Positions 1,985 through 54,671 of a DNA stretch of 64,000 bases are shown piece by piece. Each line of letters opens with the position of its first letter. Positions within the stretch are counted from its first letter, which is position 1. Origin of the DNA: Bacteroidota bacterium (GTDB lineage Bacteria > Bacteroidota > Ignavibacteria > UBA10030 > UBA8401); the NCBI GenBank assembly GCA_041658205.1, contig JBBAAO010000001.1, positions 710,800-774,799 on the forward strand, in the 5' to 3' direction. The notes below the pieces were generated by a model. It was not told where the DNA came from, did no database searches, and saw only the letters and a program-made list of their open reading frames with translations. A program made the position numbers and the translations under genes.

Positions 1985-2032
1985 TTTGATAGAACACGAA
2001 TTAGACTGATTGACACGGATAAAAAGAATCAA

Positions 2033-2063
2033 ATGTAAGTCGGGATTGCATCCCGATTTACAT
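2033..2063. terminator. Palindromic hairpin between convergent genes (14-bp stem with 1 mismatch, loop TGC). Likely terminator for the minus-strand GH92 gene, whose sense strand carries a U-run after the hairpin.
   Basis: atgtaagtcgggat-tgc-atcccgatttacat read directly from the sequence. Nested inside a 10-bp outer inverted repeat, 1989-1998 (atagaacacg) and 2071-2080 (cgtgttctat). Confidence 0.5.
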
Positions 2064-2076
2064 AAAAATCCGTGTT

Positions 2077-4386
2077 CTATTTCTTATTAGGTTTAGCCCC
2101 CATCTCGAATACAATCGCCGCACCGTTCATTAGATCAGAATGAATGAAATAATTTTTCTTCCATTCCGTTCCGTTTAGCATAATCTTTTGCACATATACA
2201 TTCTTTGGCGATTGATTCTTTGTGTTGATGGACAGTGTTTTTCCGTTCTCCAGTTTGATCTTTGCTGACTTCACTAATGGACTACCGATCGAATATTGAT
2301 CCGAACCAGGAGCGACAGGGTAAAATCCTAATGCACTGAAAATATACCACGCAGACATTTGTCCGCAGTCGTCGTTTCCGCTCAGCCCGTCCGGCGTATT
2401 CGAATATTTAATGTTCAAGATCTTGCGGACTTTTTCTTGTGTCTTCCATGACTCACCGATCCAGTTATAGAGATACGGGACATGATGAGAAGGTTCATTT
2501 CCATGAACATAGTTTCCGATGATCCCTTCGCGAGTAATATCTTCGTTATGTGCAAAGAATTCGTCCGGCAGATGCATGGTAAAGAGCGAATCTAAGTAAT
2601 TAGAAAATTTTTTATTCCCACCAAGTAATTGAATCAATTTTGGCACGTTGTGGGGGACATGAAGGGAATAATTCCACGAATTGCCCTCAATAAATCCTTG
2701 TCCGTCGGTTTCTAACACACTAAAGTTTTTCCGGAACGATCCATCGCTCATTTTTGGACGCATAAAACCGATTGATGCATCGAAGACATTGCTGAAATTC
2801 TCTGATCGTTTGATGAACTCATTATACACTTTTTCATTTCCCAGCTTTTTTGCCATCTGTGCAATCGCCCAATCGTCGTAGGCATATTCCAGCGTTTTAG
2901 AGACGGATGAGGAGTTCTTATCGTCCGGTATATATCCCATTGCTATGTAATATTCCAAGCCGTCGTAGTATTTTTGCTGTGCTGTCTTTACACTTGCATC
3001 AAGTGCTTTTACTACATCAAAAGAAACATTTCCTTTTATGAATGCATCAGCAATGACCGACACGCTATGATAACCGATCATGCACCAATTTTCATTGGCA
3101 TAATGAGACCAAATCGGAAGCATGTTGTGAACGCTCTGTTCGTAATGAGCAAGCATTGAACGAATCATATCGCCGTTTCGTTTCGGCTGAAGGATGTTGA
3201 AGAGAGGATGAAGAGCACGGTACGTATCCCACAGTGAGAATGTTGTATAATTGGTAAATCCATCAGCAGTATGAATATTCTGATCGATTCCTTTGTATTG
3301 CCCATCCACATCCATATAGACTGTTGGACTGAGAAACGTATGGTAAAGAGAAGTGTAAAACGTCTCAGTATCTTTTTGGGAAAGGAGTTCGGCATTTACT
3401 TTTCCCAATTCTTCGTTCCACAAATCTTGACTCTCTTTCTTTACCCGCTCAAAATTCCAGTCCGGAATTTCAGCAGTGAGATTTTTTACTGCTCCTTCTG
3501 TGCTCACAGGGGATAACGAAAATTTTACTTTGATCTTTTCATTTACTTCTGTTGAAAAATTGAAATAAGCTCTGATATTCTTTCCCGCCATTTCGGGGAA
3601 ATTGGTTCTCACGTCGAATTTTTTCCAGAAACCGCGATAGATGGAAGTATCAAATTTCGCATGACCGTATGATGTAAACGGTTTGTTGAATGCCATGGCA
3701 AAATAGACAGTGCGTGTCCGTCCCCAGCCATTGGTCTGTCTAAATCCCGTCACAAGCGTGTCACTTTCAACACGGATGAATGTCCAGACATTCTTTTCAT
3801 CATAATTATAGATACCGTGCATCAAATCGAGAATGATATGTGATTCTTCCGATCGCGGGAATGTGTATTGATGAAAACCGACGCGTGTAGTTGCAGTCAA
3901 TTCCGCCGTGATTCCGCCGGAGGCGGATCCGCCTTTGGCGGAGTTATGGTCATCCAGTTTCACTTTGTAATACGCCGGCTCGGCAGTTTCGTTTGTGTGT
4001 GAATAGCGAGACCGATAACCGTTTTCAGGATGATTTGCTGTGCCGGGATTGAGTTGTAATTCACCGGTTGTCGGCATGATTAAAAAATCGCCAAGGTCGG
4101 AATGTCCTGTCCCGCTGAAATGTGTGTGACTGAATCCGACAATCGTCTTATCTTCATATTGATATCCTGCACAGTACTGATAGACTTCTGCCTGATATTT
4201 TCCATTCTTCTCGTAACTGAGTGTATCGGTATCCGGACTGAGCTGCACAGAGCCGAAAGGAACTGTTGCTCCGGGAAATGTATGTCCCATTCTCTGTGTG
4301 CCGGTGAGTGGTTTTACGTATTGGATGAAATTTGTTTGTGCGAAAATGATGATGGGAAAAACAAACAGAAGAGATACTTTTCTCAT
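2077..4386 (-). CDS. GH92 family alpha-mannosidase (alpha-1,2-mannosidase-like), secreted
   Basis: Start trimmed to the internal Met (MRKVSLLFVFPIIIFAQ signal peptide). The motif GFSHTHFSGTGHSDLGDFLIMP and the overall length (about 770 aa) are typical of GH92. Confidence 0.85.
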   Translation of the reverse strand: MRKVSLLFVFPIIIFAQTNFIQYVKPLTGTQRMGHTFPGATVPFGSVQLSPDTDTLSYEKNGKYQAEVYQYCAGYQYEDKTIVGFSHTHFSGTGHSDLGDFLIMPTTGELQLNPGTANHPENGYRSRYSHTNETAEPAYYKVKLDDHNSAKGGSASGGITAELTATTRVGFHQYTFPRSEESHIILDLMHGIYNYDEKNVWTFIRVESDTLVTGFRQTNGWGRTRTVYFAMAFNKPFTSYGHAKFDTSIYRGFWKKFDVRTNFPEMAGKNIRAYFNFSTEVNEKIKVKFSLSPVSTEGAVKNLTAEIPDWNFERVKKESQDLWNEELGKVNAELLSQKDTETFYTSLYHTFLSPTVYMDVDGQYKGIDQNIHTADGFTNYTTFSLWDTYRALHPLFNILQPKRNGDMIRSMLAHYEQSVHNMLPIWSHYANENWCMIGYHSVSVIADAFIKGNVSFDVVKALDASVKTAQQKYYDGLEYYIAMGYIPDDKNSSSVSKTLEYAYDDWAIAQMAKKLGNEKVYNEFIKRSENFSNVFDASIGFMRPKMSDGSFRKNFSVLETDGQGFIEGNSWNYSLHVPHNVPKLIQLLGGNKKFSNYLDSLFTMHLPDEFFAHNEDITREGIIGNYVHGNEPSHHVPYLYNWIGESWKTQEKVRKILNIKYSNTPDGLSGNDDCGQMSAWYIFSALGFYPVAPGSDQYSIGSPLVKSAKIKLENGKTLSINTKNQSPKNVYVQKIMLNGTEWKKNYFIHSDLMNGAAIVFEMGAKPNKK

Positions 4387-4619
4387 AACAGCGCCTTTAG
4401 AGAAGGAAGAAAACTTTTGAGAACATAGAGATAAAAAAGGAGAGAAGAAATAGCGCAAATAGAATACAGATATCACGGATTTATATAGATTGCTTTATCC
4501 GTGAAGATCCGCATGATCAGTGTCATCCGTGTTCTATTCAGTTCTATGCAGTTTGTCTTGCATAAAATCTTTCAATTCTCCATATTCCACGACAACAATT
4601 ATTCACATTTAGGAAATTC

Positions 4620-5519: not shown

Positions 5520-5752
5520 TTTCCAAAAGCTCACCACAGAGTCACAGAGAAGTACGGTAAAGACATCTCGCCACCCTTTGTCTGAAACTATAAAAAACCC
5601 TCAAGTATATTAAATCTTCAATTCATAATAACTCATTGCGCTTTACCTAAGGCTTCTATCAATTACCTGTTCTTAAAATAGTGTGACTTAAAGTCCGTAG
5701 ACTTTAATATATTTTATATCAATTATGAAACAAAATTGAAAATTAAATATTA

Positions 5753-8939: not shown

Positions 8940-9024
8940 TTTTACTCAATGAACAATGAACAGCTAACAATTACCATATTTTGCAAAACATTGTTAATTG
9001 TTTATTGATAAATGATTACTGAAT

Positions 9025-10704: not shown

Positions 10705-11451
10705 TTGAATTCAAAAAAAGATGATGAAGTGAAGAGAACCAAAAAATTACCCATTACCCATTATCCATTATCGATTCTTTTTTTCATATTATTTTCGTTC
10801 ACTCTTCACGCTCAGTCGATCACTGAAGATACTGTTTGGTTAAATGACGATTGGTACTATTCTGCCGAAGATTCTTCGTTTATCGACCTTACCGATTTTC
10901 TTCCCACTTTTTTTAACGACGAGGCCCATCTTAAACGATATCTTCGTAATAAACGCTTCATTGAACTTCGCAAACTTTATGATGACACTCTTGCGGTTGA
11001 TGCGATCTATGATCGGGCAATGCTTATTGCCGATGGAGATGTCCGTCACGCACTCCTCATTGCTACTCTAGCTGTTATGGATCATCGAACATTGGGAATT
11101 AATGTTCCTCTCTTCGGTTCAATCTATTTCCCGCTGACATTTGAAAACGATTCACTCTTTCGGCTTCGTCGGACGAATCTTCCCAAAAAACTTCTCAATG
11201 ATAAACAGCGAAGCAGCGATAAGGATAAGCTGCAGCATTTTTTCGGTTCAGCATTTTTGGCATATTCAACAAATTCTCATGTTATCTCAGAATGGATTGG
11301 GGATCTTCTGGAAATCGGTGAAAATCGTTTTGTGCTGGGAGGAAAAAATGATCCGCGGGATAAACTGGCAAATGCAAAAGGGAGAGAATTTGGTTTACGA
11401 TTACTGAGGGATGAACAACTGCTGCCTAGTGATATATTGTGGGGAGAATGA
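10705..11451 (+). CDS. Hypothetical secreted protein
   Basis: 248 aa with an N-terminal hydrophobic signal region (LSILFFILFSFTLHAQS). No recognised domain. Confidence 0.45.
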   Translation: MNSKKDDEVKRTKKLPITHYPLSILFFILFSFTLHAQSITEDTVWLNDDWYYSAEDSSFIDLTDFLPTFFNDEAHLKRYLRNKRFIELRKLYDDTLAVDAIYDRAMLIADGDVRHALLIATLAVMDHRTLGINVPLFGSIYFPLTFENDSLFRLRRTNLPKKLLNDKQRSSDKDKLQHFFGSAFLAYSTNSHVISEWIGDLLEIGENRFVLGGKNDPRDKLANAKGREFGLRLLRDEQLLPSDILWGE

Positions 11452-27187: not shown

Positions 27188-28054
27188 ATGGTAAAAATTA
27201 CAAAACAATACACGAATAGAGAGAGCCAATCGCTCGACAAGTATCTTCAAGAGATCGGTAAAGTCGATTTGCTAACTCCCGATCAAGAAATCCAATATGC
27301 AAAGGATATTAAAAAGGGAGGAGCCAACGGACAAAAGTCGTTGGAGAAATTGACGAAAGCGAATCTTCGCTTTGTGGTGAGCGTTGCGAAACAATATCAG
27401 AATCAAGGATTGTCACTCGGCGATTTAATCAACGAAGGAAATCTTGGACTGATTAAAGCAGCAAAACGTTTCGATGAGACCCGTGGATTTAAATTCATTT
27501 CCTATGCGGTGTGGTGGATTCGTCAATCGATTCTTCAAGCGCTTGCAGAACAATCCCGTATCGTTCGTTTGCCATTGAACAGAGTCGGTGCATTGAACAA
27601 GATCGGTAAAGCGTTCAGTCAATTAGAACAGGAATTCGAACGCGAACCAAGTGCCAGCGAACTTGCAGAAGAACTCGATATGTCCGTGTTTGAAGTTGCC
27701 GATACATTAAAAATTTCAGGACGTCATCTCTCCGTTGACGCTCCATTTGCACAGGGAGAAGATAACCGACTGCTTGATGTTATTCAAGACGAGCGTCAGC
27801 CTGCGCCTGACTCTATCTTAATGGATGAATCACTAAAGGAAGAAGTGAAACGTGCACTGGCGACATTAAGCGAGCGTGAATCCGAAGTGATCCGTCTTTA
27901 TTTCGGTCTGCACAAAGAACACTCGTTAACACTCGAAGAAATCGGCGAAAAATTCAATCTCACTCGCGAACGGGTCCGTCAGATTAAAGAAAAAGCAATT
28001 CGTCGACTGCGACATGCATCGCGAAGTAAAAATCTGCGCTCGTATCTTGGATAA
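27188..28054 (+). CDS. rpoD: RNA polymerase sigma-70 family factor (short primary-like sigma, RpoD family)
   Basis: 288 aa. Regions 2, 3 and 4 are recognisable ([18 protein letters not shown], region 2.4 [12 protein letters not shown], region 4 [24 protein letters not shown]). Confidence 0.85.
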
Positions 28055-28084
28055 TCCACATTTAATCAAATATATTTTTAGAAA

Positions 28085-28113
28085 CCCCTTCAAAGACTTT
28101 GAAGGGGTTTTTT
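28085..28113 (+). terminator. Rho-independent terminator downstream of the sigma factor gene
   Basis: Perfect 11-bp GC-rich stem (ccccttcaaag-a-ctttgaagggg) followed by TTTTTT. Confidence 0.85.
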
Positions 28114-28396
28114 ATTCGTGCCTAAAATAAAAATTAACCATTGAAATTCCGTCTATTTCGATGGTTTTATTTTAAAAACCACGTATTTACGTGATTGCGG
28201 AATAAAGTAATAATCCTTATCTATAAACCTTTTTACCTATCAATACAGCTACCTACCAGTAGAACAATAATAATTTGACAATTTTGGTCATCAAAAGTAG
28301 ATTAGAGGAGTCTAAAATCAGATAAATTTCTCCTTTTTCTCACCCTCGAAAATTGCATAAAATGAATACTGTATTTTTAATGAAACAAGGAAATGT

Positions 28397-32783: not shown

Positions 32784-32857
32784 TTTTTTCATTGAATCAT
32801 CGTGCAATTGATTCAATGTATTAATGAACAAATGGATCAATTTATTTTGGAGTAACA

Positions 32858-44966: not shown

Positions 44967-45296
44967 ATGGCACCTCCAAATAAAAATACTCCGAAACGCA
45001 ATGAAGAGATGCGCAAGTATGTCTTACGACGGGATAAGATGTGCTGCCAATGGCCAGGATGCGGAAGCACACTGAACATTGATGTTCTTTTCTTGATTGA
45101 AACGGATAATGAAACTCCGCCTGATAATTCCCTCTTTTATAAAAACGGTGTAACGTTATGTCCGAAACACATGGAAATTGTAAATTTGCATGACAAAGCG
45201 TTTGGTCCTTTGATCTTTGATCTGATTCAGTTAGTAGAGTTTGAAAGGGATCTGCAGGAAACTGAAAAGGAGTATAAGGAACTCTTGAGCAAATAA
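44967..45296 (+). CDS. Small Cys-rich protein with a degenerate HNH-like zinc-finger arrangement
   Basis: 109 aa. RRDKMCCQWPGCGS ... NGVTLCPKHMEI resembles an HNH/zinc-ribbon layout, but the expected catalytic His is replaced (NIDVLFLIE). Confidence 0.3.
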   Translation: MAPPNKNTPKRNEEMRKYVLRRDKMCCQWPGCGSTLNIDVLFLIETDNETPPDNSLFYKNGVTLCPKHMEIVNLHDKAFGPLIFDLIQLVEFERDLQETEKEYKELLSK

Positions 45297-45304
45297 CAGT
45301 TCAA

Positions 45305-45370
45305 TTGAACAACAGCAACATTTTTGTTATACTGTATCCGTCCTGATAAGGATGGATTTTTTTATTTTTA
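45305..45370 (+). promoter_or_regulatory. Sigma-70-like promoter (TTGAAC, 17-nt spacer, TGtTATACT) immediately followed by a hairpin plus T-run, upstream of metF
   Basis: Putative -35 at 45305-45310. Extended -10 at 45325-45333. Hairpin atccgtcct/aggatggat at 45336-45357, followed by TTTTTTTATTTTT. Confidence 0.45.
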
Positions 45371-45383
45371 GGGAGAGTAGTGA

Positions 45384-46292
45384 ATGCATATTGCAGAAAT
45401 TCTTAAACAACAAGCGCCGCATTTTAGTTTTGAATTTTTTCCGCCAAAAACAGAAGAGGCTTCAAAAATATTATTTGAGTCTATTAAAGAACTGACACCG
45501 TTAAAACCTTCCTACGTCAGTGTAACATACGGTGCGGGAGGATCAACCAGACAGTTAACACACGATCTGATTGTGCGATTACAAAAAGAGACACAGTTGA
45601 CCATTGTTTCACATCTTACCTGTGTAGGATCCACAAAGGATGAAATCAGAGAGATTCTTACCAAGTATGATGCTAATGGTATACAAAATATTATGGCACT
45701 TCGCGGAGATCCGCCGAAAGGGCAGTCACAATTTGTGCAGACAGAAAATGGTTTTGCCTATGCTGCAGAGATGGTGACATTCATTAAAAAACATTTTCCC
45801 AGGATGGGAGTTGGTGTTGCCGGTTTTCCCGAGGGACATCCCAATACCCCGAATCGTTTGAAAGAGATCGACAATCTAAAAGCAAAAGTGGATGCAGGCG
45901 CGGACTATATCTGCACTCAATTGTTTTTTGAAAATCGTGACTACTATGATTTTTGTGAGCGATGTGACATTGCGGGAATAAAAGTTCCGATCATCGCCGG
46001 AATTATGCCAGTAACATCCCGAAAAGGGTTTGCACGCATGGCAGATCTTGCGCTTGGTGCTCGATTTCCTGCGAAACTCCTTCGTGCTGTTTCCCGCGCT
46101 GAAGATGACGAATCTGTAGAGAAGGTCGGAATCCATTGGGCAACAGAGCAAGTGCGGGACTTGATCGATCGCAACGTTGCGGGGATTCATTTCTACACAC
46201 TCAATCGATCAAAACCAACCTTGAAAATTTACGACTCTCTAGGAATCAAATCATCTGATAGTTTGCGAAAAGCACCTGTTCCGTTATCATAA
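45384..46292 (+). CDS. metF: 5,10-methylenetetrahydrofolate reductase
   Basis: 302 aa. MTHFR TIM-barrel motifs (FEFFPPKT, VTYGAGGST, ALRGDPP). Confidence 0.85.
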   Translation: MHIAEILKQQAPHFSFEFFPPKTEEASKILFESIKELTPLKPSYVSVTYGAGGSTRQLTHDLIVRLQKETQLTIVSHLTCVGSTKDEIREILTKYDANGIQNIMALRGDPPKGQSQFVQTENGFAYAAEMVTFIKKHFPRMGVGVAGFPEGHPNTPNRLKEIDNLKAKVDAGADYICTQLFFENRDYYDFCERCDIAGIKVPIIAGIMPVTSRKGFARMADLALGARFPAKLLRAVSRAEDDESVEKVGIHWATEQVRDLIDRNVAGIHFYTLNRSKPTLKIYDSLGIKSSDSLRKAPVPLS

Positions 46293-47880: not shown

Positions 47881-47883
47881 AAT

Positions 47884-47917
47884 TTAATCATTGTTTCATC
47901 GAATCATTGAATCATTT
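47884..47917. repeat. AT-rich heptamer-repeat arm (AATCATT-type). Inverted partner of the arm at 48298-48340, upstream of the four-helix-bundle gene.
   Basis: The reverse complement matches 26 of 34 positions of the downstream arm. Confidence 0.5.
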
Positions 47918-47930
47918 TTAGTTTTATTCA

Positions 47931-48302
47931 GTGGTGAACATGTATCAGTCAGAAGAGTTAAAACTTCGTTCAAAAAGGTTTGCGTTAAGCATTGTAGCAT
48001 TGTTTCAATCTTTGCCAAAATCTGACGATGCTCGTGTGTTAGGTAAACAAATGCTTAGATCCGGAACATCTGTTGCTGCTAATTACCGTGCAACATGTAG
48101 AGCAAGATCAAAAGCGGAATTTATTGCTAAGATTGGAATTGTTGTTGAAGAAGCAGACGAGACAGTTATGTGGTTGGAAATGCTTACGGATTCGAAAATT
48201 GTACCTTCTACAGTAACGGACTCTTTATTAAAAGAGGGGAATGAACTTCTTGCAATTTTTGCGGCTTCATATAATACTGCCAAGTATGGCAAAAACAAAT
48301 GA
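47931..48302 (+). CDS. Four-helix-bundle protein (23S rRNA intervening-sequence protein family, TIGR02436-like)
   Basis: 123 aa. The RFALSIV...GKQMLRSGTSVAANYRA...EFIAKIGIVVEEADET pattern is characteristic of this family. Confidence 0.8.
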   Translation: MVNMYQSEELKLRSKRFALSIVALFQSLPKSDDARVLGKQMLRSGTSVAANYRATCRARSKAEFIAKIGIVVEEADETVMWLEMLTDSKIVPSTVTDSLLKEGNELLAIFAASYNTAKYGKNK

Positions 48303-48340
48303 ATCAATGGATCAATGAATAAATGAATTAATGAATCAAT
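48298..48340. repeat. Tandem AATGAAT-like heptamer repeat (about 6 units). Downstream inverted arm flanking the four-helix-bundle gene.
   Basis: aaatgaatcaatggatcaatgaataaatgaattaatgaatcaat, read directly from the sequence. Confidence 0.6.
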
Positions 48341-48346
48341 TTCCTT

Positions 48347-49471
48347 ATGAATGCTAAACTCAAAATAGGCGTGTTATTTGGCGGCCGCTCTGCCGAACAC
48401 GAAGTTTCACTCGTATCCGCGGCATCGGTGATCAATGCATTGGACAAATCGAAATACGATGTTGTTCCGATCGGCATTACAAAAGAGGGAAGGTGGTTGA
48501 GTGCCGTAAATGCTATTCAATTGCTGAAAGACCATTCGCCGATTGAACAGCTCCCCGAGCACGTGCTTCTTCCCGATCCGCGAAAACAATCGCTCGTCAA
48601 CATCAGCGGTGCATTTCCACAAAATGCGCAAAAAGTGGATGTCATCTTTCCCGTAATCCACGGAACATTCGGCGAGGATGGAACGATTCAAGGATTGTTT
48701 GAATTAGCAGATCTACCGTATGTTGGTGCCGGCGTATTGGGCTCGGCTGTAGGAATGGATAAAGTTATTGCAAAACAATTATTACAAAATGTTCATATTC
48801 CGGTTGCGCCGGGTATCTCGTTCATGTATTCGCAGTTCAAAACGAAATCCAAACAATATATTGTCGATATTGAAAAGAAATTGAAATATCCCTGCTTTGT
48901 GAAACCGCCGAACCAAGGATCGAGCGTTGGGATCAGTAAAGCACATAATCGGAAAGAACTTATTGCCGCAATTCATGCTGCGGGAGAATATGACAGAAAG
49001 ATTCTTGTAGAAAAAGCGGTGAACAGACCGAGAGAGATTGAATTAAGTGTGTTGGGTAATGATGAACCAATCGTTTCCCTGCCGGGTGAGATCGTCCCCT
49101 CGAACGAATTTTATGACTACGATGCGAAGTATGTGGATGGAAAATCGTCTGCTCATATTCCTGCAAAACTCACCAAACCAGTCATAAAAAAATTGCAGGA
49201 TTGTGCATTGAAAGCATATATTGCGTTGGATTGTTCGGGAATGGCTCGAGTCGATTTCCTGCTGCAACGAAACGGGAAATTCTATCTGAATGAGATTAAC
49301 ACAATTCCCGGTTTTACTTCCATCAGCATGTATCCAAAATTATGGGAAGCGTCAGGAATTTCGTATTCTGAATTGCTCGATCGGTTGATCGGATATGCCA
49401 TTGAACGATATGAATCAAAGAAGAAGTTAAAAACATTTTATACACCAAAATCAGATTGGTACAAAGAATAA
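48347..49471 (+). CDS. ddl: D-alanine--D-alanine ligase
   Basis: 374 aa. ATP-grasp fold. N-terminal [20 protein letters not shown] and C-terminal ARVDFLL...[12 protein letters not shown] motifs. Confidence 0.9.
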
Positions 49472-49568
49472 TGAATACGAAACAATTTCGTTTCTTGCAA
49501 TCGCCATCAATATATTGTATTGTGAGGTAGAAATAATTAACAAGGTATCATAAAACAGGGGTGCTGTT

Positions 49569-51005
49569 GTGATAAACAAAACAAAACAAAACAAAACAAT
49601 ATTCTTTAATCTTCTTATTTATTTCCCATTTCTTGCCCTATTTTCCCAGTTGCTTTCTTCGCAGATTGTGATTAAAGATTCGATCGTTATCATTCCCAAA
49701 ACGCAGATTATCCCGAGCATTATTATTCCAGATCCTCTTCCCGATCCCGATCCATTGCCAAGGACGAAATATTTTATGACAAGCGATTATGCCGGATTTC
49801 CTGCGGCTGATTTTGTCTTTCTTCCCGGTACACTCGAAAATGTCCGTTTGAAATTGACGTATAATCTTACGTTGCTAAATCTCGATGCGTACTATCCGCA
49901 AGGTTTTAGTTTTACAATGGTGCCAATTTATTTAGGTCCGTATATTTTTTCCGTCGATGTGCCGCCAAGCAATCAAGTAACCCAATCAGGAACTGTAGAT
50001 GTGTTCGATCTCTATGGCAGCGGTTTACCGTCAGAGGGTTTGTTTAATTTCAGTATGCACCACGGTGGTCCAACAGGACTTACTATTAATGATGCCGGAG
50101 ATTCTGCTGTATTTAGTTATCATTTTGATGTGCCATTACATTACATTTTAGATGGCACTGCAACGCTTTATGTTGACACGACAAAAAGTGCAAAAATTTC
50201 TATAACGGTATCCGATGAAACTTTATTACCACTTTCAGATAGCGATAACAAGGGACCTAAAAAAGCGCGAGTTATTGATTTTTCGAATGTGAAACGAACA
50301 AAAGTTACAGTTATAGTAAAAGATGGTTCAGATACTCCAATGCCCAATTACCCGTTTACAATAAACGCATTGATAAGAGGTTATTCCGGCGGACATGATC
50401 ACAATACTACACGTCCGGTTGGAAGATTTATTTTGAAAAAAGATACTGTAAGCGTAATGAAATGCACAACTGATGTAAAAGGTGAAATTAAACTTGATTA
50501 TTTATGCAGTGGCTTTGGTGGTGTCGATTCCATTTTTGTTCAAGGCGAAACCAACAAAGATACGGCGTCTGCAACAATTGTGGTAAAAGTACCTGGTTTG
50601 ACGGAATTAACTTCTGGCAGCCATTATGATTTGATTGGTGCAAATGCAGGGGGTTCACATCATAATAAGAATCATTACGGGAAGGCAAACTTGATTAATA
50701 CTTTAAAAACTATTGCAGATACGGCTTATTCTAAAAAATCATATAGACTTCGTTTCAATGATATGAGTTTAATATATGGTGGACCTTTTGATATCAATAA
50801 TAATTGGGATACACCTCATCAGAATCATAGAGAAGGTGTCAGTGTTGATGTTAGTAGTACTGCAGTTACTGATAATGGGAGTAGCAGAAGTGTCACTGAG
50901 GATCGGCTGAGTAACTGGCTTGGGACTTCATCAAGAGGATTTAGATACTATTCAATTCAAAATGAAGTGTTAACGGCTCGACATTATCATGTAACAGTTC
51001 CATAA
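49569..51005 (+). CDS. Hypothetical secreted protein (possible metal-dependent hydrolase)
   Basis: 478 aa with a GTG start and signal-like N-terminus. Contains a DPLPDPDPLPR linker and His-rich motifs (GGSHHNKNHYG, HQNHREGVSVD). The start is uncertain because of the (AAAAC)n tract at 49572-49595. Confidence 0.4.
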   Translation: MINKTKQNKTIFFNLLIYFPFLALFSQLLSSQIVIKDSIVIIPKTQIIPSIIIPDPLPDPDPLPRTKYFMTSDYAGFPAADFVFLPGTLENVRLKLTYNLTLLNLDAYYPQGFSFTMVPIYLGPYIFSVDVPPSNQVTQSGTVDVFDLYGSGLPSEGLFNFSMHHGGPTGLTINDAGDSAVFSYHFDVPLHYILDGTATLYVDTTKSAKISITVSDETLLPLSDSDNKGPKKARVIDFSNVKRTKVTVIVKDGSDTPMPNYPFTINALIRGYSGGHDHNTTRPVGRFILKKDTVSVMKCTTDVKGEIKLDYLCSGFGGVDSIFVQGETNKDTASATIVVKVPGLTELTSGSHYDLIGANAGGSHHNKNHYGKANLINTLKTIADTAYSKKSYRLRFNDMSLIYGGPFDINNNWDTPHQNHREGVSVDVSSTAVTDNGSSRSVTEDRLSNWLGTSSRGFRYYSIQNEVLTARHYHVTVP

Positions 51006-51020
51006 GATAAGGAGAAAATT

Positions 51021-51941
51021 ATGAAAATACTTTATGCTATTATTACAATAAGCTTGTTTGTAAAAATACTCAGCGGTCAAACTTTTGAAACACGCAATAA
51101 AATTGATCTAAAGATTGGTTTTAATTTGACAGTTAATAACCAGATATATAATTACAATTATTCTCTTACAAACAGTGCAACTGCAAAGGAGAGCGTGTAC
51201 ATATTTGACCTTCGTCTCCCCACTAATGTTCCGATAAACAATCTAAATGGACCCTTAAATTGGGGTAAAGTATTATTTTCTGATTCACCACAATTGATTC
51301 GTTGGATTGCCGATGTTGATGACGAAACGGACCATTATGGAAAAAACGTAATTGGTCACAGCGTTTCCCTAAGCGATTTCTCCTTCAATAGCAGTAATTC
51401 TCTTCCCGGAATTCTCATTTATTATTCTGAAGGATGGGCCCCAGCTCCAGTCTTCGAAGAAGGTGATGAAACCGATACCATTCCTGGCTATACTGACCTC
51501 ACCCCTTATGGACCTGGTGTTGTCGGCAAAACCGTCGGTCCCGTTCAACCTCCAATCCCATTCGTCCATTTATCATATCTTGACACGCTCATTGCCTACA
51601 CTCACCAGTCCGCAGCACTTGGTTGGCTCAAATCCAAACAAGACGAGGATAGTGATGATGGCGAGGAGAAACCTGAAGACGGAATTGTAAACAATTTGGC
51701 TAAACGTCTGCAAAAAGCGAAAACCGAATTGGTCAGAGGCGATTCTGTTAAAGCTCGGAAAGAGTTGGGAAAATTCCTGAAAAAAGTTGAAACTATCCAT
51801 GATCGAAGTGTAAAAGCTGAACAGAAAAAAAAGGAAGATGATGTTATTATGACGAGCGAATCGTTTGCACTTTTAAAATATAATGGCGAATATTTATTAG
51901 AACGACTACCAGCGAAGACAAAGGGAAGGAATGACAAATGA
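51021..51941 (+). CDS. Hypothetical secreted protein with an acidic C-terminal region
   Basis: 306 aa with a signal peptide. No recognised domain. Overlaps the next gene by 4 nt. Confidence 0.4.
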   Translation: MKILYAIITISLFVKILSGQTFETRNKIDLKIGFNLTVNNQIYNYNYSLTNSATAKESVYIFDLRLPTNVPINNLNGPLNWGKVLFSDSPQLIRWIADVDDETDHYGKNVIGHSVSLSDFSFNSSNSLPGILIYYSEGWAPAPVFEEGDETDTIPGYTDLTPYGPGVVGKTVGPVQPPIPFVHLSYLDTLIAYTHQSAALGWLKSKQDEDSDDGEEKPEDGIVNNLAKRLQKAKTELVRGDSVKARKELGKFLKKVETIHDRSVKAEQKKKEDDVIMTSESFALLKYNGEYLLERLPAKTKGRNDK

Positions 51942-52588
51942 AAAAGTTTTTCTTTTTTGCATTATTATTCAATATGCTGTTTTCGCAGCACAAACTTCCC
52001 TTTGCCTCACAAAACAACACTATTGAACTTGCCATTACCAACTCTGCAACCATTGATGCTGGAAATGTAACGGTTACCGTCTCAAACGCACCAACATGGA
52101 TTCGCTTCAATAATCCCCGCCAAGCAGAAGGCGGGCACGTAGCATCTGAAATTCAAAATCTTAAATCGGGAGAATCTGGAACTTCACGCTTTACATTCTC
52201 GGTGGATAAATCGGCGCCTGTTGGAAAAGAGCACGCACTGCAATTTGTAATTTCATCACTGAGCGGTGAAGAATGGAAGAAAGAAATTTCCATTCAAGTT
52301 GCCGCTCCGGAACAGTTTGAATTGTATCAGAATTATCCCAATCCGTTTAACCCAAGCACAACAATCAGTTTTTTACTTCCAACAGCAGGTGATGTTTCTC
52401 TGAAAGTGTTTGATGTTGTGGGAAGAGAAGTAGTTACGTTATTTGATGAGGTGAAAGTCGCAGGATTTCATCAACAAGTTTGGGACGCTACCAATGTTGC
52501 AACCGGAGTATATATTTACCAACTCTCTTATTATAATCAAAAAGGGGAACAAGAATATCATCGAAAAAAATTACTGTTCCTAAAATAA
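51938..52588 (+). CDS. Secreted protein with a T9SS C-terminal sorting domain
   Basis: 216 aa. Signal peptide plus C-terminal YQNYPNPFNPSTTISF...LKVFDVVGREV (Por_Secre_tail type). Confidence 0.55.
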   Translation: MKKFFFFALLFNMLFSQHKLPFASQNNTIELAITNSATIDAGNVTVTVSNAPTWIRFNNPRQAEGGHVASEIQNLKSGESGTSRFTFSVDKSAPVGKEHALQFVISSLSGEEWKKEISIQVAAPEQFELYQNYPNPFNPSTTISFLLPTAGDVSLKVFDVVGREVVTLFDEVKVAGFHQQVWDATNVATGVYIYQLSYYNQKGEQEYHRKKLLFLK

Positions 52589-52666
52589 TCCTGTTGTTAG
52601 GAGTTTTTATTGCTGCCCGCTGATTTGTAACACGATATGCGTAATGGTTGTTGACGAAGTAATATT

Positions 52667-52730
52667 TTGAACGATACAAAACTTTTGGTATACTATATCC
52701 GTTCTGATCGGCAGAACGGATGTTTTATTT
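52667..52730 (+). promoter_or_regulatory. Second copy of the promoter+hairpin module (TTGAAC, 16-nt spacer, TGgTATACT, then hairpin atccgttctg/cagaacggat and a T-run), upstream of the cNMP-binding gene
   Basis: -35 at 52667-52672. -10 at 52689-52694. Perfect 10-bp stem at 52697-52721, followed by GTTTTATTT. Confidence 0.45.
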
Positions 52731-52743
52731 ATAGAGCTAAAGT

Positions 52744-53613
52744 ATGATCACCAAAGAATTTCTCTCCAAGATACCCATCTTTAAATTTCTTCCGGAAGAA
52801 GACCACATTTCGCTTGTCAGTTTATGGAGAGTGAAAACATTGAAAGCGGGTGAAGTGCTTTTTCGGAAAGGAGAGCCAGGATCATCCATGTATGTTATTG
52901 AAGATGGAGAGATCGAAATCCTTCTTCCTGTTGATCCTCCGGTGAACGAAGTTCAACTTTCCATCTTGAAGGAAGGGGAATTCTTTGGCGAACTTTCCCT
53001 CTTTGCTGATACACCTCGGACTGCAACGGCACGCGCGTTAACGAATACGAATCTTGTCGAGATGCAGCGGGGCGATTTTATCACGTTTGTGATGGAGCGT
53101 CCGTCGATTGGTATTTCCATGTTAAGCGAGATGGCGAAACGTTTGCAAATGACGAACGAACTCATTACATCGCTTGCATCCAAGAATCCAAATGATGAAA
53201 TCGAAGAGACATTAAGCATTGGTGACCGTATAGCAGATAAGATTGCAGAATTTGGCGGAAGTTGGAGATTCATCCTTTCGTTTGGTGCATTTATGTTTAT
53301 GTGGATTACCATTAATGTGTTGCAGTTTATTGTTAAGCCGTTTGATGAATATCCATTCACATTCTTGAACCTGATGCTTTCTACAGTTGCGGCACTACAA
53401 GCGCCGGTTATTATGATGAGCCAAAATCGTGCTCAGAAAAAAGATCGTTTAAAAGCCGATCTCGATTATCAAGTCAATATAAAATCGGAATTGATGCTGC
53501 AGCAATTACATCAAAAAATGGATCGGTTGTTGGACGAAGAAATGGAGCACATACGAAGAGAATTTAATTTGATGAAGAGTCCTGTCAAAGCTAAAAAGAA
53601 GACAAAAAAATGA
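52744..53613 (+). CDS. Cyclic nucleotide-binding domain protein fused to a DUF1003-like membrane domain
   Basis: 289 aa. cNMP-binding motifs (GEFFGELSLF, RTATARA). C-terminal two-TM region typical of DUF1003. Confidence 0.65.
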   Translation: MITKEFLSKIPIFKFLPEEDHISLVSLWRVKTLKAGEVLFRKGEPGSSMYVIEDGEIEILLPVDPPVNEVQLSILKEGEFFGELSLFADTPRTATARALTNTNLVEMQRGDFITFVMERPSIGISMLSEMAKRLQMTNELITSLASKNPNDEIEETLSIGDRIADKIAEFGGSWRFILSFGAFMFMWITINVLQFIVKPFDEYPFTFLNLMLSTVAALQAPVIMMSQNRAQKKDRLKADLDYQVNIKSELMLQQLHQKMDRLLDEEMEHIRREFNLMKSPVKAKKKTKK

Positions 53614-54671
53614 AATTCAATCGACCGGTCATTATCGGCGGTTTGTGGTTTTTTTTAGGATTGATCTATTCCAGTCAATCCTTTTTTTATTCCCTTAGTG
53701 TGGGGCGGGAATATGTCTGGCAGCGATCGCTTTTCCATTCGTTCGTCTTTTGCATTGAATGGGGTTTCCTCACACCGTTAGTTCTCAAAATTGTAGAGCG
53801 GTTCCGATTAGATGCGAAGAGTTTTCGCAGGAATCTCTTTTATCATTTTTCTTTCGGACTTGTGATAGCATTTGTGCAACAGTTGGTGTATGTGTATATA
53901 GTGAATTTTGTTGACAGCGGATTTCAATTAACAAAATCATTTTTAGGATATTTCCCTTCGATCATTGGTTTTTTTGAATTTGGCGTGCTGATTTATTGGG
54001 CAATTGTTTTTATGTATCACGCCATCGGATATTATCACCGCTACCAGCAGGAAGAAAAGAATGCTTCAGAACTTCGGTCGCAGCTTGTTGAATCTCAATT
54101 ACAAGCGTTAAAAATGCAGTTGCAGCCGCATTTTCTATTCAACACTCTAAACGCAATATTTGTCCTTGTTAAAAAAGAGCCTTCACTCGCCCAAAAAATG
54201 ATCGTCCGATTAAGCGATCTTCTTCGATTGACGCTGGAGCGGGGAAATGCAAATACCGTGAGCCTCGAACAAGAACTGGAATTCCTCAATACGTATCTTG
54301 CCATCGAGAAAGTCCGGTTTGGAGATCGGTTGTCCATTAAAATGAATATTGAAGAATCGGCTCTGAGTTCATCTGTTCCGACATTCCTTTTGCAACCTCT
54401 TGTGGAAAATTCCATCCGTCATGGATTAGCGCAGCGTGCCGGAGATGGATGGATTGAAATATCATCTGAGGTGAAAAAGGGAAAACTCTTTCTTTCAGTG
54501 GAGGATGGCGGAACAAAATCCAGACGCAAAAAAGAAAATTCAGATGGGATTGGTGTTGGATTGGAGAATACCAAAAAGCGTTTGAAACAATTGTATGGCG
54601 ATCAATTCAATTTTGAAATGCGCCCTAATGAGCAGAATGGATTTACGGTAAGAATAGAAATACCGGTTTAA
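53610..54671 (+). CDS. Sensor histidine kinase, LytS/YehU (His_kinase PF06580) type
   Basis: 353 aa. N-terminal TM helices, the HFLFNTLNAI signature, and a C-terminal HATPase (GIGVGLENTKKRL). Confidence 0.75.
   Translation: MKFNRPVIIGGLWFFLGLIYSSQSFFYSLSVGREYVWQRSLFHSFVFCIEWGFLTPLVLKIVERFRLDAKSFRRNLFYHFSFGLVIAFVQQLVYVYIVNFVDSGFQLTKSFLGYFPSIIGFFEFGVLIYWAIVFMYHAIGYYHRYQQEEKNASELRSQLVESQLQALKMQLQPHFLFNTLNAIFVLVKKEPSLAQKMIVRLSDLLRLTLERGNANTVSLEQELEFLNTYLAIEKVRFGDRLSIKMNIEESALSSSVPTFLLQPLVENSIRHGLAQRAGDGWIEISSEVKKGKLFLSVEDGGTKSRRKKENSDGIGVGLENTKKRLKQLYGDQFNFEMRPNEQNGFTVRIEIPV

Follow-up and report, generated by a model that had tools for sequence, protein, structure and literature searches.

Two questions are raised by the short region that precedes metF in the DNA studied here: why should a promoter be followed, almost immediately past its -10 box, by a hairpin and a run of T residues, and why is the same arrangement found a second time, 7.3 kb away, in front of a gene for a cNMP-binding membrane protein? 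The DNA is a stretch of 64 kb (64,000 nt, hereafter the window) with a G+C content of 41% and genes for proteins with T9SS sorting domains. The earlier note which drew attention to the two sites offered three options for this module, i.e. a leader attenuator or riboregulatory element, a combined terminator and promoter unit propagated as a repeat, or a REP-like element carrying its own promoter. To judge from the sequence comparisons detailed below, the metF cluster of an uncultured Ignavibacteria-like clade of Bacteroidota has this module as its conserved 5' region, and the module has the make-up of a transcription unit boundary, in which a sigma-70-type promoter is fused to a terminator-like hairpin starting 2-3 nt past the -10 box.

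The first copy lies between a conserved ORF and metF, and consists of the following elements.

44967..45296, + strand: conserved 109-aa ORF, co-directional with metF, its stop codon 8 nt 5' of the copy 1 -35 box
45305..45333, + strand: copy 1 promoter, with TTGAAC (45305-45310), a 17-nt spacer, TGt (45325-45327) and TATACT (45328-45333)
45336..45357, + strand: copy 1 hairpin, ATCCGTCCT/AGGATGGAT, 9 bp including one G.U, loop GATA
45340, + strand: predicted copy 1 transcription start, a G placed by sigma-70 geometry 7 nt past the -10 box, with a C before it
45358..45369, + strand: copy 1 T-tract TTTTTTATTTTT, immediately 3' of the stem
45370-45377, + strand: copy 1 Shine-Dalgarno-like sequence AGGGAGAG, after the T-tract
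45384..46292, + strand: metF (methylenetetrahydrofolate reductase; Pfam PF02219, E = 1.5e-95), ATG at 45384

The sequence directly 3' of TATACT is gTATCCGTcCTGAT, and G45340 is the fifth nucleotide of the 5' arm of the hairpin. The 109-aa ORF has no Pfam match and displays 62-78% amino-acid identity across 10 relatives. On the other side, metF is the first gene of a cluster ordered metF / class II aldolase / beta-lactamase-like / (23S_rRNA_IVP) / ddl. The intergenic segments on both sides of the 23S_rRNA_IVP-family gene (47931-48302), at 47881-47930 and 48303-48346, are filled with short repeats rich in A and T (GAATCA / TGAATCAATGA type), and so are the intergenic segments 32784-32857 and 8940-9024.

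The second copy is built in the same way.

52667..52694, + strand: copy 2 promoter, with TTGAAC (52667-52672), a 16-nt spacer, TGg and TATACT (52689-52694)
52697..52721, + strand: copy 2 hairpin, ATCCGTTCTG/CAGAACGGAT, 10 perfect bp, loop ATCGG
52701, + strand: predicted copy 2 transcription start, a G which is the fifth nucleotide of the 5' arm, placed by sigma-70 geometry
52722..52733, + strand: copy 2 U-rich tract GTTTTATTTATA, 3' of the stem
52744..53613, + strand: gene for a cNMP-binding/DUF1003 membrane protein (Pfam PF00027 and PF06210), ATG at 52744

Here aTATCCGTtCTGAT comes directly 3' of TATACT, and the stem reaches 12 bp if an A-U and U.G extension is counted. Another hairpin is found downstream of this gene, 47 nt inside a His_kinase ORF (53610-54671): it has 9-10 bp (AGGATTGATCTATTCCAGTCAATCCT, 53657-53682), is followed by T8 and is conserved in relatives (at 10914 in lineage L090 and at 10944 in lineage L006, where C has become T and a G.U pair results). 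Possible explanations are a coincidence of membrane-segment coding, an internal terminator behind the cNMP gene and a mis-called start codon.

At both sites the layout that had been described (TTGAAC, a 16-17 nt spacer, TGnTATACT and the string nTATCCGTyCTGAT) is indeed present, as is the hairpin of 9-10 bp with its T-run. The claimed identity of 21 out of 24 bases is about right when TTTTG is included, and from the -10 box to CTGAT 18 of 20 bases are identical. Between 40 and 60 kb, no terminator-like site ranks above the two hairpins. When the 20-mer TATACTNTATCCGTYCTGAT was searched for with up to three mismatches, exactly two matches were obtained in the 64-kb window, namely copies 1 and 2, for an average of 0.01 match in shuffles of the window; neither this search nor covariance models revealed a third copy there. 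Two kinds of look-alikes were discarded. Five further matches to TATACTNTATCCGT (two mismatches to the 14-mer) in the window are unrelated, being mostly in or beside coding sequence and devoid of hairpin or T-run. The ATCCGT motifs near 2000-4600 (ATCCGTGTTCTA) belong to a separate local repeat: at least five instances of ATCCGTG(TTCTA) or of its complement lie at 1985-2076 and 4477-4619, on both flanks of a GH92 glycoside hydrolase gene (2077-4476, - strand), and this sequence could be a local regulator-binding motif.

To see how widely the module is distributed, orthologous loci were collected via homologues of the cNMP/DUF1003 protein; the relatives are MAGs labelled 'Bacteroidota bacterium' and, for one of them, 'Ignavibacteriales bacterium'. 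The module was found upstream of metF in 13 further lineages, 12 of which have the hairpin; hairpin and U-tract are thus kept in 13 of 14 lineages. The full module stands directly 5' of metF in L085, L087, L090, L092, L095, L096, L098, L099, L101, L102, L103 and L005, and the metF genes of module-bearing relatives are, where measured, 78-91% identical to that of the window. The common layout is TTGAAC/A/T, N16-17, TATACT, 2 nt, ATCC(G/A)TC, an inner stem and loop that vary, GA(C/T)GGAT, a T-run and, before the ATG, a Shine-Dalgarno sequence. Among 12 aligned lineages TTGAA and TATACT are invariant while the spacer drifts, and L103, outside this alignment, has TTGAAT and TATACT; in the outer stem of the aligned lineages the CC/GG pairs are equally invariant, the rest of ATCC/GGAT is nearly so, and the inner stem and loop drift. 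With their near-consensus hexamers 16-17 nt apart and TGn 5' of the -10 box, these sequences closely match a sigma-70-type promoter.

The origin of copy 2 was addressed with a covariance model, R2, made from the 12 metF modules alone, copy 2 being excluded. R2 matched copy 2 at 62.9 bits (E ~1e-9) over model positions 1-81, from the -35 box to the ATG; since the match is full length, copy 2 is a paralogue of the metF 5' region. The next-best match in the window scored 25.9 bits (E ~0.01). It corresponds to a terminator (AAACCCCTTCAAAG...GGGGTTT and a T-run, 28061-28129) after the gene at 27188-28054, with TTGGAT-N18-TATATT before it, and was set aside as a weak look-alike, probably an ordinary terminator in AT-rich DNA.

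The arrangement of the genes in the relatives indicates what happened at the end of the metF cluster, where two further features have to be considered.

48347..49474, + strand: ddl, with stop codon TAA at 49469-49471, then a vestigial ATGA at 49471-49474
49475..52747, + strand: insertion of 3273 bp relative to the common arrangement, with three genes and with copy 2 as its right end

In ten relatives the same metF-led cluster ends with the cNMP/DUF1003 gene. Nine of them have this gene overlapping the stop codon of ddl (..TAATGA.. or ..xxATGA..), and in L098, the tenth, its start is 3 nt beyond the point where ddl is called to end. In evolutionary terms it is wrong that the two genes downstream of the module have no obvious link, as had been remarked. 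The ATGA left after the ddl gene of the window is the equivalent of the overlapping cNMP/DUF1003 start codon of the relatives. The ddl gene ends with TAATGA (49469-49474) and the cNMP gene restarts with ATGA (52744-52747). This leaves a 4-bp direct repeat on either side of the insertion, which suggests a microhomology-mediated insertion or a target-site duplication (flanks 49471-49491 and 52744-52747). A small hairpin, ACGAAAcaaTTTCGT, and TTCTT are present at the left end of the insertion (49471-49491). The inserted genes code for an M74-like peptidase, a 306-aa ORF product and a Por_Secre_tail protein; there is no transposase gene in this three-gene block, and an IS200/IS605-like insertion, considered for its subterminal hairpins and the ATGA at both ends, was rejected on that ground. 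L005 carries homologues of the last two of these genes directly 5' of the module and metF, and an L005-like block together with the metF leader is a plausible donor, in which case the junction would be at the start codon. The insertion separated the cNMP/DUF1003 gene from ddl, to which it was ancestrally coupled, and copy 2 supplied the displaced gene with the predicted promoter that it has at present.

Two near-identical copies in one genome, one of them at the end of an inserted block with direct-repeat flanks, is also what a mobile, promoter-carrying repeat spreading to intergenic regions could leave behind. Like the module, REP/BIME elements are imperfect intergenic palindromes found after a gene and in more than one copy. 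Against this stands the number of copies: a covariance search of 433 kb, i.e. the window and 25 related loci, recovered only the known ones, without any extra copy in the ~370 kb from the 25 loci, and the module was detected by the covariance models at the metF locus only in the related genomes sampled. Unlike a REP/BIME element, the module exists in two copies, one of them being fixed as an orthologue at the same locus in many lineages, with no family elsewhere in the DNA searched. Among the 185,579 species genomes of a GTDB set that excludes the window's own genome, the exact 20-mer gave two matches, one in a Bacteroidota MAG and the other in a Clostridia MAG, both inside coding sequence and both due to chance. 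We hold a REP-like origin to be very improbable. The idea of a combined terminator and promoter unit is the one that fits best, save for its propagation as a repeat: the unit was copied once, by segmental duplication/insertion, and neither the window nor the related loci contain a repeat family.

The hairpin itself is kept as an RNA structure. In the alignment 94-95% of the stem cells pair, versus 25-47% when the partners are slid by 1-3 columns; changes on both sides are seen in six of the 10 stem pairs, and the observed covariation score was reached by none of 500 shuffles. Six G.U or U.G cells of the stem fit only a + strand RNA; as they would be A.C mismatches on the opposite strand, the hairpin is placed in the + strand RNA. 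A bidirectional terminator and a DNA cruciform were rejected on account of these mismatches and because the minus strand has no T-run after the hairpin. The full hairpin has a stem of 7-12 bp with 3-5 G-C pairs and a predicted folding energy of -9 to -18 kcal/mol, and it adjoins the U-tract. The combination of hairpin and U-tract is, on these comparative grounds, that of an intrinsic terminator, and the structure is under selection at the RNA level.

The same data bear on a quite different reading, in which ATCCGTC...GACGGAT would be a DNA operator for a dimeric repressor, for example a methionine- or SAM-responsive one, common to both genes. The half-sites are conserved in sequence and they overlap +1, which is the classic position for a repressor; but their distance varies from 4 to 12 nt among lineages, which rules out a dimer operator of fixed spacing, the compensatory changes include G.U pairs that are mismatches in the symmetry of duplex DNA, and the T-run is always 3' of the repeat. 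We regard such an operator as very improbable.

The position of the start site is what gives the module its particular character. The nucleotide at the predicted +1 is in the context cG or cA in all 12 folded sequences, and in L096 and L099 the change of this G to A goes with a change of its pairing partner from C to U. The start site is predicted by applying an E. coli-type geometry to an uncultured lineage and could be off by a nucleotide or two; it falls inside the stem, past its four outer pairs. These are kept in every hairpin-bearing lineage, and one of them has undergone a change of both bases in L085, from U-A to G.U. Such maintenance argues for selection acting on an RNA that contains the bases 5' of the predicted start. 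When folding begins at +1, a residual stem of 3-6 bp is left, set apart from the U-tract by GGA.

The reading we favour, to which we would give about one chance in two, is that the hairpin terminates read-through from upstream, and that transcripts initiated by the module, with their start 5 nt into the stem, escape. A polymerase arriving from the co-directional upstream gene would transcribe the whole hairpin and terminate in the U-tract. The module promoter would initiate at the conserved purine 7 nt past the -10 box, the fifth base of the 5' arm; the resulting RNA would be without the outer four pairs (AUCC/GGAU) and would keep an inner stem of 3-6 bp with GGA before the U-run. Lacking these pairs, the module-initiated transcripts would not be terminated and would proceed into metF or the cNMP gene. 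That the outer four pairs are maintained, although they would be absent from the module's own transcripts, favours a terminator for the upstream gene.

The main competitor of the read-through terminator is a leader element working on the module's own transcripts, either a promoter-proximal attenuator or pause site, or a 5' stem-loop that stabilizes the metF mRNA, possibly with control by a factor recognizing the conserved AUCCGUC. Its retention with metF in nearly all lineages is what a leader would display, and so is the fact that the module travels with metF whatever gene is upstream (the latter differs in L085, L090 and L005); this association is nonetheless expected from the position of the module and does not discriminate between the hypotheses. 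Stem-loops at the 5' end are known stabilizers of mRNA, as in ompA and in leaders of the ermC/aprE type, and their geometry is that of a stem starting at +1. A residual stem exactly from +1 is predicted in eight of the 11 hairpin-bearing sequences. It is down to 3 bp in L087, and none is predicted at +1 for the metF module of the window, L096 and L099, so that a 5' stabilizer would not be uniformly maintained; moreover, and unlike in the known stabilizers, the conserved outer stem would lie outside the mRNA. For attenuation, a very short leader before a terminator has a precedent in GraL, a terminator in the greA leader, where the hairpin is likewise a few tens of nt from the start, without an obvious anti-terminator: there are 19 nt (from P1) before the terminator structure and about two-thirds of the transcripts terminate (PMC6829880). 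GraL differs from the module in that its own transcripts form the complete terminator, whereas the predicted start of the module lies inside the stem.

The features of a classical attenuator are also missing from the module, the hairpin of which comes right after the -10 box without upstream leader RNA, leader ORF or alternative fold; there is no anti-terminator pairing and no conserved loop in a 5' UTR of ~44 nt, no Rfam family matches, and L006, which has no hairpin, still keeps the promoter and metF. Together with the conservation of outer pairs that cannot form from the predicted start, this disfavours the attenuator or riboregulator first suggested, and we consider a leader element possible but distinctly less than probable as the main function. 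It could nevertheless coexist with the terminator role, be it as attenuation or as 5'-end protection, and the residual stem from +1 may in addition shield the mRNA at its 5' end. A special case would be a small riboswitch, of the SAM type expected 5' of metF. metF is a frequent riboswitch-controlled gene, and the module does combine a structured leader and a terminator. Rfam, at the gathering threshold, gave no match in the window, and the best permissive matches (8-22 bits) are far from the family thresholds of 40-100 bits; since loop and inner stem are unconserved there is no ligand pocket, and, the leader being that short and the same element serving a non-methionine gene, a riboswitch is hardly credible.

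If the hairpin serves the upstream gene, what surrounds it should be informative. In most hairpin-bearing lineages no other terminator is present between the upstream stop codon and the -35 box, and these are usually separated by ~10 nt, in a few lineages by up to 25-30 nt. The exceptions to the short gap are metF of L090 (540 nt, without any other terminator) and copy 2 of the window (78 nt). In L099 the upstream ORF has its stop codon at the module itself, and there is a second promoter before metF. In L006, the 3' arm has decayed and no hairpin forms; promoter and ATCCGTTCC are kept, and a strong separate terminator is found after the 109-aa ORF. In L090, the unrelated promoter of the cNMP gene sits behind its own hairpin, after ddl, with no hairpin downstream. 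The complementary distribution of the hairpin and of another terminator, which speaks indirectly for termination of upstream transcripts, comprises just one homologous case (L006) and one non-homologous promoter (L090). Distant orthologues have the ordinary order, i.e. terminator, then promoter. In L095 alone, a G+C-rich hairpin (CAGCGGG-acct-CCCGCTG, ~5695-5717) without T-run lies in the gap that separates the end of the 109-aa ORF from the -35 box of the metF module. Upstream of the cNMP/DUF1003 orthologues of L007-L010, L020 and L021, Bacteroidetes-type promoter motifs resembling TTTG-n-TAnnTTTG come after an ordinary terminator; their use in distant relatives, versus TTGAAC/TATACT in the clade of the window, hints at a shift of promoter style within the phylum.

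Several points set limits to the read-through terminator. With a start 2 nt earlier, the transcripts of the module itself would retain a near-complete terminator. Some self-termination is plausible in L085, where only GG stands between the residual stem and U7. The conservation of ATCC could be explained by constraints on the promoter discriminator alone; in the module, the outer stem would be conserved in sequence because it doubles as promoter discriminator and start region.

With respect to known systems, the module shares with intrinsic terminators a stable stem-loop followed by a U-tract, on the sense strand and downstream of a co-directional gene, with covariation in addition; it differs from them in lying past a -10 box instead of before the next promoter. 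Coupled promoters and terminators, in which a terminator and the next promoter lie within a few tens of bp between co-directional genes, are another parallel, their coupling being widespread in bacteria according to the title of a recent preprint ('Widespread coupling of promoters and terminators of transcription in bacteria', bioRxiv 10.64898/2026.08.19.745784). A literature search for start sites within terminators yielded mostly eukaryotic papers, Conway et al. 2014 contained nothing on the geometry of the module, and we found neither a start-site study of Ignavibacteria nor a description of a terminator placed past the -10 box, with an in-stem start, conserved in a clade and used a second time together with an insertion. 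When ~250 kb of DNA from the clade was scanned by strict structural criteria, the metF modules and copy 2 were returned, and no non-homologous promoter abutting a terminator; nor did ~430 kb of clade DNA in all yield an independent example. The module is therefore locus-specific, and not a demonstrated design rule. Promoter and intrinsic terminator are each ordinary, and the module is a modest, locus-specific combination of the two.

A bolder extension would make of the module a portable, 'origin-filtering' boundary, which stops upstream polymerases, is invisible to those that start internally, and might add recycling and the re-equipping of genes cut from operons. Termination ~25 bp past the promoter may return the polymerase straight to it, as in recycling termination with facilitated reinitiation at the nearest promoter (PMC11347151), and would in that case couple expression of the upstream gene to that of the metF cluster. 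The self-contained unit of ~80 bp, from the -35 box to the start codon, could re-equip a gene severed from its operon, as was the case for cNMP/DUF1003. Taken as a whole we find this extension unlikely.

What the module means for this clade depends on where transcription starts. With a start outside the stem, it would merely be the conserved leader hairpin of one operon, with a local duplication. With a start inside the stem, it would be a natural terminator discriminating transcripts by their origin, conserved in a clade and reused once for a gene displaced by an insertion; it would then be useful for operon annotation in uncultured Bacteroidota/Ignavibacteria, would bear on the emerging view of promoter-terminator coupling, and would provide synthetic biology with a compact insulator part.
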